Assembly (NCBI GenBank): GCA_964010765.1
Contig: CAXGMD010000006.1
Span: 1,481 to 65,480 of the forward strand
Direction of reading: 5' to 3'
DNA length: 64,000 nucleotides
From: an uncultured bacterium
GTDB lineage: Bacteria > SAR324 > NAC60-12
Shown here: piece after piece, positions 4,912 through 46,685 of the stretch
Layout of the letters: every line of letters starts with the position of its first letter
Numbering within the stretch: position 1 is the stretch's first letter
Position numbers and translations under genes: made by a program
The notes under the pieces: generated by a model
Told to the model about the DNA's origin: nothing
Seen by the model: the letters and a program-made list of their open reading frames with translations, nothing else
The model's database searches: none

Positions 4912-7048
4912 TGACTCTTCGCCGGAGCTCTCGCTCTTTCCTCCTCTTGTTGAAACACGTTCCCAATTAGAAAAACTGGCTGAGCTGCTTCAATGGAAGG
5001 ATGCTCCCCAACTGGGCCATTGGCAGGCAACCTTGCAACATGCAGAAGCTAGGCTGCAGCAAGCAAAAGTCCGGATTGCCGTATTGGGTGCTGTCAAATC
5101 TGGTAAGTCCACGCTACTTAATGCCTTGTTGGGGGCAGATCGCCTCCGCCGTGGGGCTGGCATTCTCACGTCGATTGTCACCCGGATTCAGCCTGGGGAG
5201 ATCAGTCGAGCGCATTTGAGATTCAAATCCAAATCGTTACTTGATCGCCAATTTCAAGCTGCCCTAGCTTTCTTACAATCGTCAGATTCATCTTTCCCTT
5301 CCTGCGAACTAGATCACGCCTCAGAACGTCAATCCTTGCTTCATTGGCTGGATGAACAACCTGTTGCAGAAGACAAAGCTCATTTTGGTGAGGAGCGTGC
5401 TTTCCTGAGAGCGTGCTTAGTCGGCTATTCTGAGGCTGCAGGCTATCTTAGTAATTCCACGCGGGTACAAACTTGGTCTGGTGAGGAAAGTGATCAACAC
5501 CAAGCTTGGGTTGAGCAAGACGCTCGGGCAGTTTTTTTGAAAGATCTTCTACTCGAAGAACCAGGTTGGACCTGGCAAGGCACTGAGATTGCGGATTGTC
5601 AGGGGAGCGATTCACCAAACCCTCTCCATTTTGCGCAGGTGCAGGAATATGCTTCACGCAGCAACCTGCTCATTTATGTAATCAGTTCCAGAATTGGCAT
5701 TCGTCAAGCAGACGTGCGCCTCTTGCGTAACCTACATCAGCTTGGCTTGGCAGATCAGATCATCTTTGTAATCAACTTAGATCTCAACGAGCATGAGGAA
5801 CAAGCCGATGTAGATCGCATTACAGAACAGATTCTGCGAGATCTACGTCAATTTGGTTGGCAACAGCCTCACTATTTTACATTCTCAGCGTTGCATTTGT
5901 TGTTGCAACGTAAGTTAGAACTTACAACTCGTGAACAAAAGCAACTCGAATTTTGGCAAAATCACTCCGTTTTTCAGATCAGTGCAACTGCTTGGAAAAT
6001 GTTTCAGGAGGAACTCCATCTAAGGTTGGTACATCAGCAATCACAGACACTACTAGCAGGAGAATGGACACATTGGCAGAGATTGCATCATCAAGTGTCC
6101 GAATTTGTTGAACGGTTACAGGTAACGCTTTCTACGGAGAATCTAGACTGGGAAGAATGGCAAAGTGAACTCCAGCATCGTCAGCGATATTTGCGCTATC
6201 ATGAACAAAATCTGCGGCATACTCTGAAGGGCGGAGAGAAACAGTGGAGGCAGCATATTGACTATGGCGTTCGGGCGTTATTTGACCGCCAAGAAGGCAA
6301 GGTTTGGAGTAGCTTGGATCGATTTCTCAGGCAAGTGGAACTGACGCCACCAAAGGATGACTTCTCACCAAACATACAAAGCATGCTCTGGGTGCAAGAA
6401 GTTCGAGAAAAACTGCTGCGTTGGGTCGTGGACGAAATCAATGTGTCCCTGTTGCCAGAAATAGCAAGATTACGCAGTGAAATAACAATGCTGATCAATC
6501 AAGCTGTAGAACCGTTCTTTGAGATTCTAGACGAACTACAACAAAGAGAGTATCAACTTCATAGCCGATTGCAGAAGGGTTCGTTATCATCTACTGAAAG
6601 TCCTAAAGTATACTGGCAATTTCCAGAGGTTGAACCGATTTCATTTACGACTACGTTGGCGTTTCAAACTCCAGAGCAACTGCGTAGTTGGTTACTTTAT
6701 GGTCAGAGTTGGTTCCGCACCCTTTGGCGTAAGGAGCGAAATCTTCAGGCGGAGTTTCATCAGCAAAGCCAGCGTGAGTTAGAGCGTCAGTTGCGAGAGA
6801 ACTTAGATTTTGATGTGTTGAATTATCAGGAAAACTTAAAATACCGATATCTTTGGTCTGGGACTCAACAACTGCTAGAGACCATTTTGGTTTGTTGGCA
6901 AGAATCAGCTCGAGGTTGCCAAACAGACCTGAGTGGTGTGCTAGAACAATTGGAGAGATTACGCTCTGAGCGAAAGCAACTAATGCCTTTGCTGGCGCAA
7001 TGGCAGAGTAATTGGGAAAAACTCAACATCAGGTTGCCGCCCGAATAG
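4901..7048 (+). CDS. Bacterial dynamin-like GTPase (BDLP family)
   Basis: 715 aa. N-terminal Dynamin_N G-domain: KVRIAVLGAVKSGKSTLLNALLG (P-loop) ... D..G. Long helical stalk. Start overlaps the upstream gene by 11 nt. Confidence 0.7.
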   Translation: MMPDDSSPELSLFPPLVETRSQLEKLAELLQWKDAPQLGHWQATLQHAEARLQQAKVRIAVLGAVKSGKSTLLNALLGADRLRRGAGILTSIVTRIQPGEISRAHLRFKSKSLLDRQFQAALAFLQSSDSSFPSCELDHASERQSLLHWLDEQPVAEDKAHFGEERAFLRACLVGYSEAAGYLSNSTRVQTWSGEESDQHQAWVEQDARAVFLKDLLLEEPGWTWQGTEIADCQGSDSPNPLHFAQVQEYASRSNLLIYVISSRIGIRQADVRLLRNLHQLGLADQIIFVINLDLNEHEEQADVDRITEQILRDLRQFGWQQPHYFTFSALHLLLQRKLELTTREQKQLEFWQNHSVFQISATAWKMFQEELHLRLVHQQSQTLLAGEWTHWQRLHHQVSEFVERLQVTLSTENLDWEEWQSELQHRQRYLRYHEQNLRHTLKGGEKQWRQHIDYGVRALFDRQEGKVWSSLDRFLRQVELTPPKDDFSPNIQSMLWVQEVREKLLRWVVDEINVSLLPEIARLRSEITMLINQAVEPFFEILDELQQREYQLHSRLQKGSLSSTESPKVYWQFPEVEPISFTTTLAFQTPEQLRSWLLYGQSWFRTLWRKERNLQAEFHQQSQRELERQLRENLDFDVLNYQENLKYRYLWSGTQQLLETILVCWQESARGCQTDLSGVLEQLERLRSERKQLMPLLAQWQSNWEKLNIRLPPE

Positions 7049-31847: not shown

Positions 31848-32261
31848 GTGATGTCTCATCGTCTAGCGATTGCTTTGCTCCTCACGCTCACCAATCTTGT
31901 GATTACCATGTCGCTTCAAGCCACTCCACTGAAAGACCATCTTTGGAAAAACCGTGTGATCATTACATTCTCTGCATCGGTGAAGGAACCGGAGCGTCTT
32001 GCACTTCAAAAGCAAATGGAAGAGAAAGCCTGTGCATTTATAGACAGAAATCTTGTGCACATAGATCTGCTTCAAGGGTCAGAGGACTTTGACGAGATGA
32101 GCCAACAATTTGCGGTATCAAGCTCAGGATTTCAGTTACTGCTATTGGGCAAAGATGGTGGGGTAAAGTTAAGATCGAGTACTGCCTCTTTAGAAGATAT
32201 TTTCTCCCTGATCGATACGATGCCAATGAGAAGAAGCGAAATGAGAGATGATCAGTGTTGA
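31848..32261 (+). CDS. DUF4174-family secreted protein
   Basis: Signal peptide, then WKNRVIITFSA...LLLLGKDGGVKLRS...IDTMPMRRSEM matches the DUF4174 signature recalled from memory. Confidence 0.5.
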   Translation: MMSHRLAIALLLTLTNLVITMSLQATPLKDHLWKNRVIITFSASVKEPERLALQKQMEEKACAFIDRNLVHIDLLQGSEDFDEMSQQFAVSSSGFQLLLLGKDGGVKLRSSTASLEDIFSLIDTMPMRRSEMRDDQC

Positions 32262-32610
32262 AGCAGCCCTACATTCAGTAATCTTGGGTTCAGTGAGTCT
32301 TCATTTTTTATTTTTTCGGTTCTTCCACGTTCCTCCATATTGATAGTTTGGATTATTTGGCCGTACAACTTCCAGGCATCCTCTACAGACAAAGACCCAC
32401 TCCTTGCTTGTGGAAACACGCACTCGAAACAGGGTGTTCATTTCTTTGAGACACTGATCACAAGATTTCATGGAAAATATGTGTGCTCAGTCAAGTTCAT
32501 GCATTCACCAAATAAAAACCACCTTCATCGCGTCTCTATACTGAGAATTCACGTTAGAATGTCCTTTTCAAATCAGGAAACATGTAACCTGAGAATTTTG
32601 GAGTAGAACC

Positions 32611-33069
32611 ATGGCTGAAGAATCTACGCTTGATACTGAGGTGAGGCACTTCATATATCAAACCTTCATAAGTGCATTGAGACCACCGACGACAGAAGAA
32701 ACTGCAAAACGATTTCAACTGCCGATTAATAAAATAGAAAGCGCTTTCGAGCGGCTTGCGGCTACACATGATATTGCACTGGCTCCTGGTAGCCACTCGA
32801 TCTGGATGGCTCATCCATTTTCTGCTTTGCCTACCAACTACACGGCCAAAATAGACGGGAAAAAATATTACGGCAATTGAATTTGGGATGTCTTCGGTAT
32901 TGCTGCCATCCTGGGCAAAAATACCGAAGGTCACACTCCGTGCGGGTGTGGAGAGTGTAATGATCATTTGGATTTTTTGATTGGTAAAAACCAGCCAATT
33001 ACCTCCGAATGGGTTGTGCATTTTGTTGTTCCTGCAAGACAGTTCTGGGAAAAAATTGGTTTCACCTGA
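32611..33069 (+). CDS. MerB-family (organomercurial lyase-like) protein with an in-frame UGA at the catalytic-Cys position; candidate selenoprotein (alternative reading: nonsense pseudogene ending at 32880)
   Basis: GGAG 7 nt upstream of the ATG. N-terminal HTH-like segment resembles MerB. ...KIDGKKYYGN-TGA-IWDVFGIAAILG aligns with MerB ...[11 protein letters not shown]96-ALD99TLIFPALIG. The frame stays open to the TGA at 33067. A stem-loop follows the in-frame TGA. Confidence 0.5.
32891..32930 (+). promoter_or_regulatory. Candidate bacterial SECIS hairpin: cttcggtatt / aataccgaag perfect 10-bp stem, 18-nt loop with an inner 4-bp stem, starting 11 nt 3' of the in-frame UGA (32878-80)
   Basis: Inverted repeat verified base-by-base in the sequence. 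The spacing matches the minimal fdhF-type SECIS (upper stem-loop 11 nt downstream of UGA). Confidence 0.45.
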
Positions 33070-33445
33070 GCTACCATCCTCGCTTTCAGTTCGAAAGCAC
33101 ATTTGCAGAATTGGTTGAAGAGAACAGATCAGAATCATGGAGCAATGATTTCTCTTCAAACCTGCCATCAATTGGCGATTCAGTGGTACTCTGGGCGAGC
33201 AGAAAAACATTGGGAAAGACGCTCGGGTGACTCAACACAGGCAATGTTTGCTGAATTAGGAATGACAGGGCCATTCTGGAGTTTTTGAAGAGCCCTTGTT
33301 AGCGCATATCGACGAAAATTTTGGTCACTGAGAGGCTTCAAGCAACCACCTTTCATTTGGCAACACCAAGGTCTTTTCAAAATTCTTGTGCTATACCCAA
33401 ACCTTTTCAACAAATCGGTTAATCATTCTTTGCTGACCGAAACGC

Positions 33446-45203: not shown

Positions 45204-45824
45204 TCAAACCAAGATTTTCTTGGCTGTTACGACATACAAAGGATCAAAGTTGCTGTTTTCACGGACAAGCTGCTCAGACTGAATTTCACGAAACCCTCCC
45301 GCCTTCTCAAAGTACCAGGAAACGAGTCGACAGTGATCCTCGCCGCTAAACATTCTCCAAGCCAGGATTGCTTTGGTTGGGAACATCCTGTTTGAAAAAC
45401 TCACACAACAGGTCCCATTCGGCTTCAAGACTCTGTAAATCTCTCTAAAGACCGGTACCGGAGAGGTTAAGTATTGAACTGATACGGCAATCGTACAAAG
45501 GTCAAATTCTTCATCACCATATGGCAACTGCTGCTCCGTGTTTAGGTTCTGAATATGGAAATCAGTGAGCTGCGTATTGTTTTGCAGTTCAATTTGATTC
45601 ATTCCATGACCCGAAACCCTAGAGTAGTGCTTGTGATCAGGCAGGTGCGAAACCCAGCTCGACATCAAATCGAGCACGGCATCGCCATCTTTCAGTAACT
45701 GATCATAGTAGTTTCTCAGAACTTGACAGGCATTTTCGTCAATGTGTTTAACTAGCCGTGGGCTCGCATAAAAAAGACGGTCATCATTGGAGTCTTCCTT
45801 GGTAAACAACTGTTCTGGAATCAT
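45204..45824 (-). CDS. Class I SAM-dependent methyltransferase
   Basis: VLDLMSSWVSHLPD (motif I-like) and a Methyltransf_11-type layout. 206 aa. Confidence 0.65.
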   Translation of the reverse strand: MIPEQLFTKEDSNDDRLFYASPRLVKHIDENACQVLRNYYDQLLKDGDAVLDLMSSWVSHLPDHKHYSRVSGHGMNQIELQNNTQLTDFHIQNLNTEQQLPYGDEEFDLCTIAVSVQYLTSPVPVFREIYRVLKPNGTCCVSFSNRMFPTKAILAWRMFSGEDHCRLVSWYFEKAGGFREIQSEQLVRENSNFDPLYVVTAKKILV

Positions 45825-46126: not shown

Positions 46127-46496
46127 TGGTGGAGGTGGCGAGAGTCGAACTCGCGTCCTGATATGCTTTCCCACGAAGCGCTACAAGCTTAGTCGAAACT
46201 TGTCGTTTTCACAGTCGGTGTCGGCAATCGACCGCCTCACGACTGTACACTTCCAGTTGATCTCATCTGACCGTCAGAAGCCCAGTCAGACCAGCCCAAG
46301 TAAAGGGTTACACCTCAACGGAGGCCCTCGGGCCTACCTCCGCGAGACGCCTACTCAGGCAGCGATTGCTGCGTGAGCCGGAGCGTAGTCGCTGTTGTTT
46401 GCAGCTATAATTTTGATGACCGTATTTACGTGGACGTTCATCACCCACGGCTTGCTCTCAGTGAGTTCCACACCCAGTCGAATACCGGGACACCCC
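46127..46496 (-). ncRNA. ssrA: tmRNA (SsrA), one-piece. Predicted tag ANNSDYAPAHAAIAA (resume codon GCA, stop UGA at 46355-57)
   Basis: Reverse complement begins GGGGGUGUCCCGGUAUUCGACUGGG. It contains GACUAAGCUUGUAG and ends GGACGCGAGUUCGACUCUCGCCACCUCCACCA. These match the E. coli tmRNA landmarks GGGGCUGAUUCUGGAUUCGACGGG, GACUAAGCAUGUAG and the T-arm plus CCA. Acceptor stem has a G3:U wobble. Confidence 0.8.
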
Positions 46497-46685
46497 CACA
46501 ACAGACCTTTTAGACTAGCAGCTTTGTGGATTTGTGCCACTGAAATCATTCAGCTTGTGCGGAAGGGAACCGTCCTTGTTCCTTGGTCAGCACTGGAGTG
46601 AACCTCGGCTCGAGTGGTGTTGTGCAGGTCACTTTGGGGCCTTGGTGTTCCCAACAGAGCACCACGACTTGTGTAGCAATCGGGG

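Follow-up and report, generated by a model that had tools for sequence, protein, structure and literature searches.

The window analyzed here, the whole of a 64,000 nt stretch of DNA from an uncultured SAR324 bacterium (GenBank assembly GCA_964010765.1, contig CAXGMD010000006.1, forward strand positions 1,481 to 65,480), carries a gene at 32611–33288 (+) that probably encodes a MerB-superfamily protein in which both metal-ligand positions (residues 90 and 153) are selenocysteine (Sec) specified by in-frame UGA codons, with Asp93 kept and two hairpins. All coordinates given below are those of the window. Sec at residue 153 is highly likely, and Sec at residue 90 is likely at a somewhat lower level of confidence. 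An earlier reading, made from the sequence alone, had proposed a MerB-like selenoprotein with a single UGA. That the gene encodes a selenoprotein is very probably correct, as the UGA is conserved and is followed by a covarying hairpin that is confined to the genes carrying it.

Gene Structure and Family Assignment

The coding sequence begins at ATG 32611, with a Shine-Dalgarno-like GGAG at 32600–32603 (+) read 7 nt before it, in agreement with the ribosome-binding site described in the sequence-only reading. The first in-frame TGA (UGA-1, proposed Sec90) lies at 32878–32880 (+). It is followed by Ile-Trp-Asp and by 62 further open codons, as had been reported and as can be read directly in the sequence, and the context of residue 90 is YYGN-U-IWDVFGIAAILGK. 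The codon at 33067–33069 (+), where the gene had been taken to end, is a second in-frame TGA (UGA-2, proposed Sec153), which in all likelihood is the family-wide Sec codon at the position equivalent to MerB Cys159; around residue 153 the sequence reads IGFT-U-ATILAFSSK. Past UGA-2 the translated frame stays open for another 72 codons up to the true stop, a TGA at 33286–33288 (+). The full coding sequence therefore has 225 codons rather than 152, including two in-frame UGAs and ending with the terminal TGA, and the predicted product is ~25 kDa instead of the ~17 kDa anticipated earlier. The TGA at 33286 was also considered as a third Sec codon and rejected: homologs terminate at the equivalent point, many of them with TAA or TAG, there is no codon-position bias downstream and no conserved hairpin, and structure 3' of this codon was not significant (z = 0.58).

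For domain scoring, Cys was substituted at both UGAs. The protein matched the Pfam MerB family (PF03243) at 74.1 bits (cut-off 27, E = 1.3e-20), with residues 70–193 aligned to positions 1–125 of the 126 in the profile, so that the domain spans both UGAs and the MerB assignment made earlier is upheld. HMMER alignment to solved structures (1s6l, 5c17) places UGA-1 on MerB Cys96 (YAW-C-ALD), with the Asp93 codon (32887–32889, +) at +3 on the proton donor Asp99, just as the by-eye alignment of the sequence-only reading had it. UGA-2 falls on the MerB2 (5c17) cysteine in 'GGTCKQIHYFSS' (GGT-C-KQIHYFSS), which is the Cys159 position. In MerB, Cys96, Asp99 and Cys159 are strictly conserved and catalytic (PMC8261052). 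These three positions read U90/D93/U153 in the window protein and Cys/Asp/Sec in most members of its clade, and W92 and D93 are almost invariant across the family alignment.

NCBIfam models of the two named lineages, MerB and the organometallic lyase SaoL, scored the window protein far below their cut-offs: 26.0 bits against 193 and 18.1 against 200 for the MerB equivalogs NF009710 and NF033555, and 30.3 bits against 140 for the SaoL model NF040728, to which only residues 9–124 aligned. When the scoring was extended to seven other clade members and Cys homologs, clade members gave 18–52 bits with the MerB models (cut-offs 193–200) and 28–58 bits with the SaoL model (cut-off 140). By these scores, the clade is a third sequence lineage in the MerB superfamily, besides MerB and SaoL.

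Between the two proposed Sec sites are three cysteines, C111, C113 and C116 (32941–32958), which include a CxxC motif kept in most of the clade (consensus C-x-x-C-G). The sub-clade with UGA at codon 90 carries an extra Cys in this motif (CGCGEC). By position, one of the three is the counterpart of MerB Cys117: the HMMER alignment points to C111, and the family alignment shows C113 as the almost invariant one. For the second Cys of the CxxC motif, MerB offers no equivalent.

Homologs and Conservation of the Two UGA Codons

A word-indexed protein search returned 25 relatives. About 19 of these end exactly at '...GFT', the point of truncation at UGA-2, with Cys at site 1 in 18 of them; one other ends at '...YWGN' and is cut at UGA-1. 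Three others, P0001–P0003 (86%, 56% and 54% identity), are translated over the full length with Trp in place of both UGAs, and run beyond the true stop into non-conserved tails. They are gene-caller artefacts of a code in which TGA is Trp, and occur on short contigs. The W that public gene callers give at both sites is what a genome-wide reassignment of UGA to Trp or Gly (codes 4 and 25) would produce, but the likelihood of such a reassignment is negligible: the three proteins overrun the true stop, homologs carry Cys rather than Trp or Gly in both columns, and 23 of the 43 Pfam-supported genes of the window end in TGA. Since TGA is the commonest ordinary stop in the window, the recoding is local and does not reflect a change of genetic code.

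A scan of GTDB, with one genome per species, found 490 loci encoding relatives, the closest being in a SAR324 single-cell genome (85% identity). Other hosts include Acidobacteriota, Gemmatimonadota, Chloroflexota, Actinomycetota, Marinimicrobia and Desulfobacterales. At least 586 more contigs with relatives were found in a metagenome scan, one of them 99% identical. From these sources, 160 homologous loci were fetched and translated with TGA written as U. Site 2 is UGA in 159 of the 160, the remaining locus being frameshifted upstream of the site, and all intact copies have a conserved tail of ~72 codons after it ('ATILxFRSEEHVxRW...GLTGxFW'). Site 1 is Cys in ~130 of the fetched loci, and is UGA in the window gene and 29 loci, 5 from genomes and 24 from metagenomes (L001–L004, L006, L081–L103 and L117). 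The UGA at this site is kept in at least 28 genes that span 51–99% identity.

In a neighbor-joining tree of the genome loci, the genes with UGA at both sites form a single clade together with one Cys-UGA gene (L005). Its hosts are SAR324, Anaerolineae and Desulfobacterales, a spread that implies horizontal transfer. Two metagenomic copies with both UGAs (L103 and L117) are frameshifted, through either assembly errors or decay. A Desulfobacter metagenome-assembled genome (MAG; locus L004) has a short relic, 'WMAHPFSSPPTNF', at ~6400–6440, lying upstream of the intact copy by about 3.8 kb.

The 72-residue C-terminal piece was also searched against 1.84 billion representative proteins. Most matches were orphan open reading frames (ORFs) of 60–75 aa, and about ten were full-length proteins (214–240 aa) with Cys at both sites, so that Sec/Cys pairs exist at both positions. 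Cys was found at site 2 in P0091, P0112, P0162, P0051, P0085, P0140, P0154, P0092 and P0081. The alignment test proposed in the sequence-only reading, namely whether homologs have Cys in the column of the first UGA, thus came out positive, with the ~130 loci at site 1, and the nine proteins show the same for site 2.

Coding Signal beyond the UGA Codons

The window gene was compared by codon position with three SAR324 homologs, in the three segments into which the UGAs divide it. Third-position substitutions dominate in all three. Against L002, for example, the counts at the first, second and third positions were 10/7/26, 6/3/14 and 4/3/12 for the successive segments, while after the final stop they were flat (25/24/29). 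Each of the three segments is thus evolving as coding sequence.

An identical copy of the 89-aa upstream fragment (32611–32880) appears in 627 indexed blocks from public assemblies, including Tara Oceans PRJEB4352 and the GenBank MAG GCA_004213065.1 (contig SHAS01000013.1), which excludes a sequencing error or private mutation. Together with the occurrence of UGA-1 in at least 28 divergent genes, this disposes of the concern, raised with the original proposal, that the TGA might be a recent point mutation. More generally, a pseudogene, or sequencing errors, would require two chance changes of TGC or TGT to TGA. Although a single base change is enough to turn a Cys codon into TGA, independent assemblies numbering in the hundreds, and distantly related phyla, share the same UGAs, coding conservation persists downstream, and the hairpins show compensatory changes, so that this explanation has a vanishingly small probability. 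Annotations invariably give the 89-aa N-terminal fragment as a short hypothetical protein (loci L161–L163).

RNA Structures Downstream of the UGA Codons

The hairpin after UGA-2 (hairpin 2; 33082–33098, +) has the sequence GCUUUC-AGUUC-GAAAGC. It starts 12 nt after the UGA, has G-U in the apical loop, and is similar to a Sec insertion sequence (SECIS). The layout resembles that of the minimal SECIS of Escherichia coli fdhF, a hairpin of 17 nt whose GGUC loop contains G-U and which lies ~11 nt downstream of the UGA. When 79 genes were aligned, which needed no gaps, the family consensus was UGA-N12-CUCUUCC-GGUC-GGAAGAG. The loop-closing pair (22–27) is C-G in 54 genes, U-A in 10, A-U in one and G-C in one; here, the base at the third position of a Ser codon (UCG, UCA, UCU or UCC) covaries with the one that opens the codon before it. 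A second pair is C-G in 64 genes, U-G in 4, G-C in 3 and U-A in one. Overall, 81.9% of cells are paired, compared with 46–56% when the partners are slid, and the covariation score was reached by none of 500 shuffles. The genes of this set vary in G+C from 42% to 75%, yet their synonymous codons within the hairpin are strongly constrained: Phe is UUC in 79 of 79 (71% elsewhere in the same genes), Arg is CGG in 56 of 58 (background 27%), Ser is UCG in 60 and UCA in 13 (background for UCG 30%), and Glu is GAA in 61 of 74 (background 38%).

The consensus model of bacterial SECIS elements (bSECIS; PMC13188914, Fig. 2A) specifies a loop of 3–9 nt with G in its first two positions, an upper stem of at least 4 bp, a distance of 16–37 nt from the UGA and a minimum free energy (MFE) of −7.5 kcal/mol or lower. 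Site 2 of the window fits this model, with the loop AGUUC starting at a distance of 18 nt from the UGA and a structure of −8.8 kcal/mol that conforms, as do 140 of 152 clade genes, compared with 56 of 152 shuffles. The true stop codon passes as well, and the specificity of the model is therefore low.

The hairpin after UGA-1 (hairpin 1; 32891–32930, +) is more elaborate. The sequence-only reading had pointed out a perfect 10 bp stem starting 11 nt after the UGA, and this is indeed present (cttcggtatt, 32892–32901; aataccgaag, 32920–32929). It is lengthened by a U-G pair (32891/32930), which gives an 11 bp lower stem, followed by a 2x2 internal loop, a 4 bp upper stem (UGCC/GGCA; 32904–32907 and 32914–32917) and a 6 nt loop, AUCCUG. 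The MFE is −25.2 kcal/mol (z = −4.05), which was equalled by none of 200 dinucleotide shuffles. All genes of the UGA type carry the hairpin. Among their 26 distinct sequences, 84.4% of cells pair, against 37–47% with slid partners, and compensatory changes occur at six pairs (e.g., pair 24–43 is C-G in 15, U-A in 6 and U-G in 5). At the same positions in 125 Cys-type genes just 48.7% of cells pair, and the mean MFE z-score is −0.26, compared with −2.67 for the UGA type (Mann–Whitney p = 2.8e-12). These differences in pairing and energy indicate that hairpin 1 tracks the UGA.

Evidence against Selenocysteine Insertion, and Alternatives

Several results weigh against the two-Sec proposal. Hairpin 1 meets the stem, spacing and energy criteria of the bSECIS model but fails its loop-G rule, as the apical loop (AUNCUN, closed by GCC/GGC) has no G at either of its two leading positions; at site 1 the model was passed by one of 26 UGA-type genes and by 46 of 126 Cys-type controls. 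This failure is the weakest link for Sec90. Neither hairpin was matched by Rfam, and a search of 32800–33350 at E-values up to 10 gave one spurious match to a long non-coding RNA. The SECIS-model check that had been suggested for the first hairpin thus gave no Rfam match and no consensus loop-G. What survives of the earlier claim for a SECIS-like hairpin at canonical spacing is the position, to which conservation, compensatory changes and restriction to UGA-type genes can be added, while the canonical form does not survive. A subset of bSECIS elements fall outside the consensus model (PMC13188914). Hairpin 1 may represent a distinct SECIS class.

The misfit favors an alternative in which only UGA-153 is Sec: UGA-90 would terminate translation, the copies in SAR324, Anaerolineae and Desulfobacterales would be decaying or truncated, and hairpin 1 would be incidental. 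The frameshifts in two of the UGA-90 copies (L103 and L117) and the uncommonness of double-Sec proteins (PMC13188914) point the same way. This alternative is nonetheless improbable, because UGA-90 is kept in at least 28 genes over 51–99% identity, the third-position bias goes on 3' of it, the copies retain both the Asp and the second Sec site, and hairpin 1 shows covariation and is missing from genes of the Cys type. In addition, the first 89 residues, which are all that termination would leave, hold none of Sec90, Asp93 and Sec153.

At site 2, the window hairpin taken alone is weak (−5.5 kcal/mol), and the 64 nt MFE fold at UGA-2 is no better than shuffles and misses the hairpin. Structural modeling was also of limited quality. 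An AlphaFold2 model was made for P0001, the database protein that is 86% identical and has Trp at both sites; its mean pLDDT was 63 and its C-terminus was poor. Foldseek comparison of this low-confidence model with the PDB gave only MerB and MerB2 structures in the top ten (E = 5e-6 to 3.5e-4), with TM-scores of just 0.32–0.42. The model has a helical N-terminal region ahead of the catalytic domain.

The Sec machinery was searched for with ARAGORN on the window and fetched loci, a SelD motif scan, and Pfam scans of ~55 window ORFs. No selA, selB, selD or tRNA-Sec was found in the 64 kb window or the fetched loci, and the Pfam scans returned housekeeping genes only (mnmE, rnc, nusB, the nuo operon, thyX, metG and others). 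Two scans of the window for ORFs bridged by TGA turned up no convincing further selenoprotein gene, and none was seen in the fetched loci. Partial SAR324 single-cell genomes have been listed with selD only (PMC5029168). A related alternative is that the recoding depends on the hairpins and SelB but inserts Cys or some other residue, for example by way of a Cys-charged tRNA with a UCA anticodon; this would accord with the lack of Sec biosynthesis genes in the window and fetched loci and with the homologs that have Cys at both sites. Cys-charged tRNAs with this anticodon have been reported in some Deltaproteobacteria. No such tRNA is present in the window. Inserting Cys would need no more than UGC or UGU, sparing the cost of a recoding element, and yet many phyla keep the UGA, which makes this alternative very improbable.

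Proposed Activity

With Sec at both sites, the following mechanism can be proposed. Each hairpin would recruit SelB and Sec-tRNA(Sec), leading to Sec insertion at residues 90 and 153 instead of termination, and the folded active site would present two selenolates and Asp93. An organometallic cation, most plausibly R-Hg+ such as methylmercury, would bind to both selenolates, and Asp93 would protonate the carbon, as in MerB, so that the hydrocarbon is released and the metal stays bound to two Se atoms. Selenolates carry no proton at neutral pH and have a higher affinity for Hg than do thiolates. Two selenolates would favor capture at very low substrate concentration, yet would hinder release of Hg(II).

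Organomercurial lyase as the physiological activity is a tentative prediction that may well prove wrong. Gene context lends no support to a role in mercury metabolism, as none of merA, merR, merT and merP was found near the gene, either among its window neighbors or in the flanks of 79 loci, and an all-against-all BLAST comparison of the flanks revealed no conserved neighborhood, the largest shared family occurring in 6 of the 79. MerB without MerA is considered problematic (PMC8261052).

Comparison with Known Systems

The sequence-only reading did not recall a MerB-like family among known bacterial selenoproteomes, and here it has to be corrected. SaoL is a MerB-like organometallic lyase selenoprotein (NF040728) whose aligned residues superpose on MerB Cys96/Asp99/Cys159 (Haft & Gwadz, bioRxiv 10.1101/2022.07.06.499078). 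A catalog of May 2026 recognizes 119 prokaryotic selenoprotein families or subfamilies, with differing Sec positions or motifs treated as separate subfamilies, and SaoL, with one Sec in a CU motif, is the sole MerB-fold entry in the 2022 and 2026 reviews (PMC13188914, Table 1). The supplementary data of a selenoproteome survey (Peng 2016, PMC5029168) name an 'Organic mercuric lyase MerB2', giving 17 sequences but not their organisms, and single-Sec members of the present clade may have been counted under that name. Reviews trace a 'MerB-like' selenoprotein back to the GOS 2008 paper, whose main text and supplements do not mention MerB. Neither the May 2026 catalog nor NCBIfam release 20 covers the present clade. 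A Sec at the nucleophile equivalent to Cys96, which would make a two-Sec site served by a pair of distinct recoding hairpins, is not listed in the catalog or in the SaoL and review literature consulted.

SaoL has a MerB fold and Sec at the residue aligned with MerB Cys159, both of which are predicted for the present clade too, and like it is regularly truncated at the UGA in databases. SaoL also keeps Cys and Asp at the Cys96 and Asp99 positions; the window protein has the Asp but a proposed second Sec at the Cys96 position. The single Sec of SaoL is in a CU dipeptide, while the window protein has G-F-T-U and the clade T-U or N-U. SaoL is encoded within a nine-gene SAO locus (SaoB, SaoP, SaoX, SaoC, SaoE, SaoT and others) in strict anaerobes, while the present gene is without conserved neighbors; no SAO genes were found in the window, and no SAO neighborhood in the 79 loci. 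The hosts are also unlike those of SaoL, being SAR324, Marinimicrobia, Acidobacteriota, Gemmatimonadota, Chloroflexota and Actinomycetota.

The likeness to MerB and MerB2 (PF03243; PDB 3F0P, 1S6L and 5C17) consists of the full-profile match, the aligned catalytic positions, the helical N-terminal region and the best predicted-fold match. Identity over the Foldseek structural alignments is just ~14–16%, and in the window protein both thiol ligands would be replaced by Sec. Known two-Sec metal-binding proteins likewise have two Sec that are presumed to ligate one soft metal ion, but they are of unrelated fold and both Sec are within one short motif. In the window protein 63 residues separate the two sites, a different hairpin follows each of them, and by homology the sites would meet in a MerB-type active site.

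Genomic Neighborhood and Other Features of the Window

The gene is flanked on one side by a DUF4174 gene and a 56-aa ORF, and on the other by an S9 peptidase gene, with a DHDPS-like gene and GGT nearby. The DUF4174 gene (31848–32261, +) is directly upstream, and its adjacency to the MerB-like gene is kept in SAR324 loci only (3 loci). Its product ends with ...DDQC just before a TGA; the frame is open afterwards, but the downstream sequence looks non-coding. The ORF of 56 aa (32301–32471, −), between the DUF4174 and MerB-like genes, has a zinc-ribbon-like CxxC...CxxC pattern and no Pfam match.

Elsewhere, a search of the whole window with Rfam at gathering thresholds detected a tmRNA gene alone (46127–46497, −; 173 bits), with the tag peptide ANNSDYAPAHAAIAA. 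In addition, a 206-aa methyltransferase-domain ORF (45204–45824, −) matches only the second half of Pfam profiles (from position 44), leaving its N-terminal 88 residues outside the match.

Significance

If both UGAs are Sec codons, hairpin 1 would add a conserved recoding element that breaks the loop rule of the consensus bSECIS model. The clade is distinct from SaoL in score, motif, gene context, taxonomy and lifestyle. In annotations, the gene is split into an N-terminal 'hypothetical protein' of 89 or ~150 aa and an orphan of 60–75 aa, or is translated with the wrong code.

A wider proposal is that these genes represent a widespread, uncatalogued MerB-like clade of obligate selenoenzymes (in at least 490 species-representative genomes), with a bis-selenolate sub-clade, that act as high-affinity lyases of methylmercury or other organometals outside mer operons. 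Taken as a whole this is speculative and rather unlikely. An open-ocean survey found canonical merB in 0–4 MAGs per sample (61–157 MAGs each), and merA in MAGs of SAR324 and Gemmatimonadota (PMC12874090); both of these groups carry the present MerB-like gene in the GTDB scan. How Hg(II) would exit from a two-selenolate site, with no linked MerA, is a mechanistic question in itself. Should the wider proposal be correct, surveys based on canonical merB would overlook a large reservoir of potential marine and soil demethylators, and if C–Hg cleavage is indeed the activity, the inventory of potential methylmercury degraders would change.

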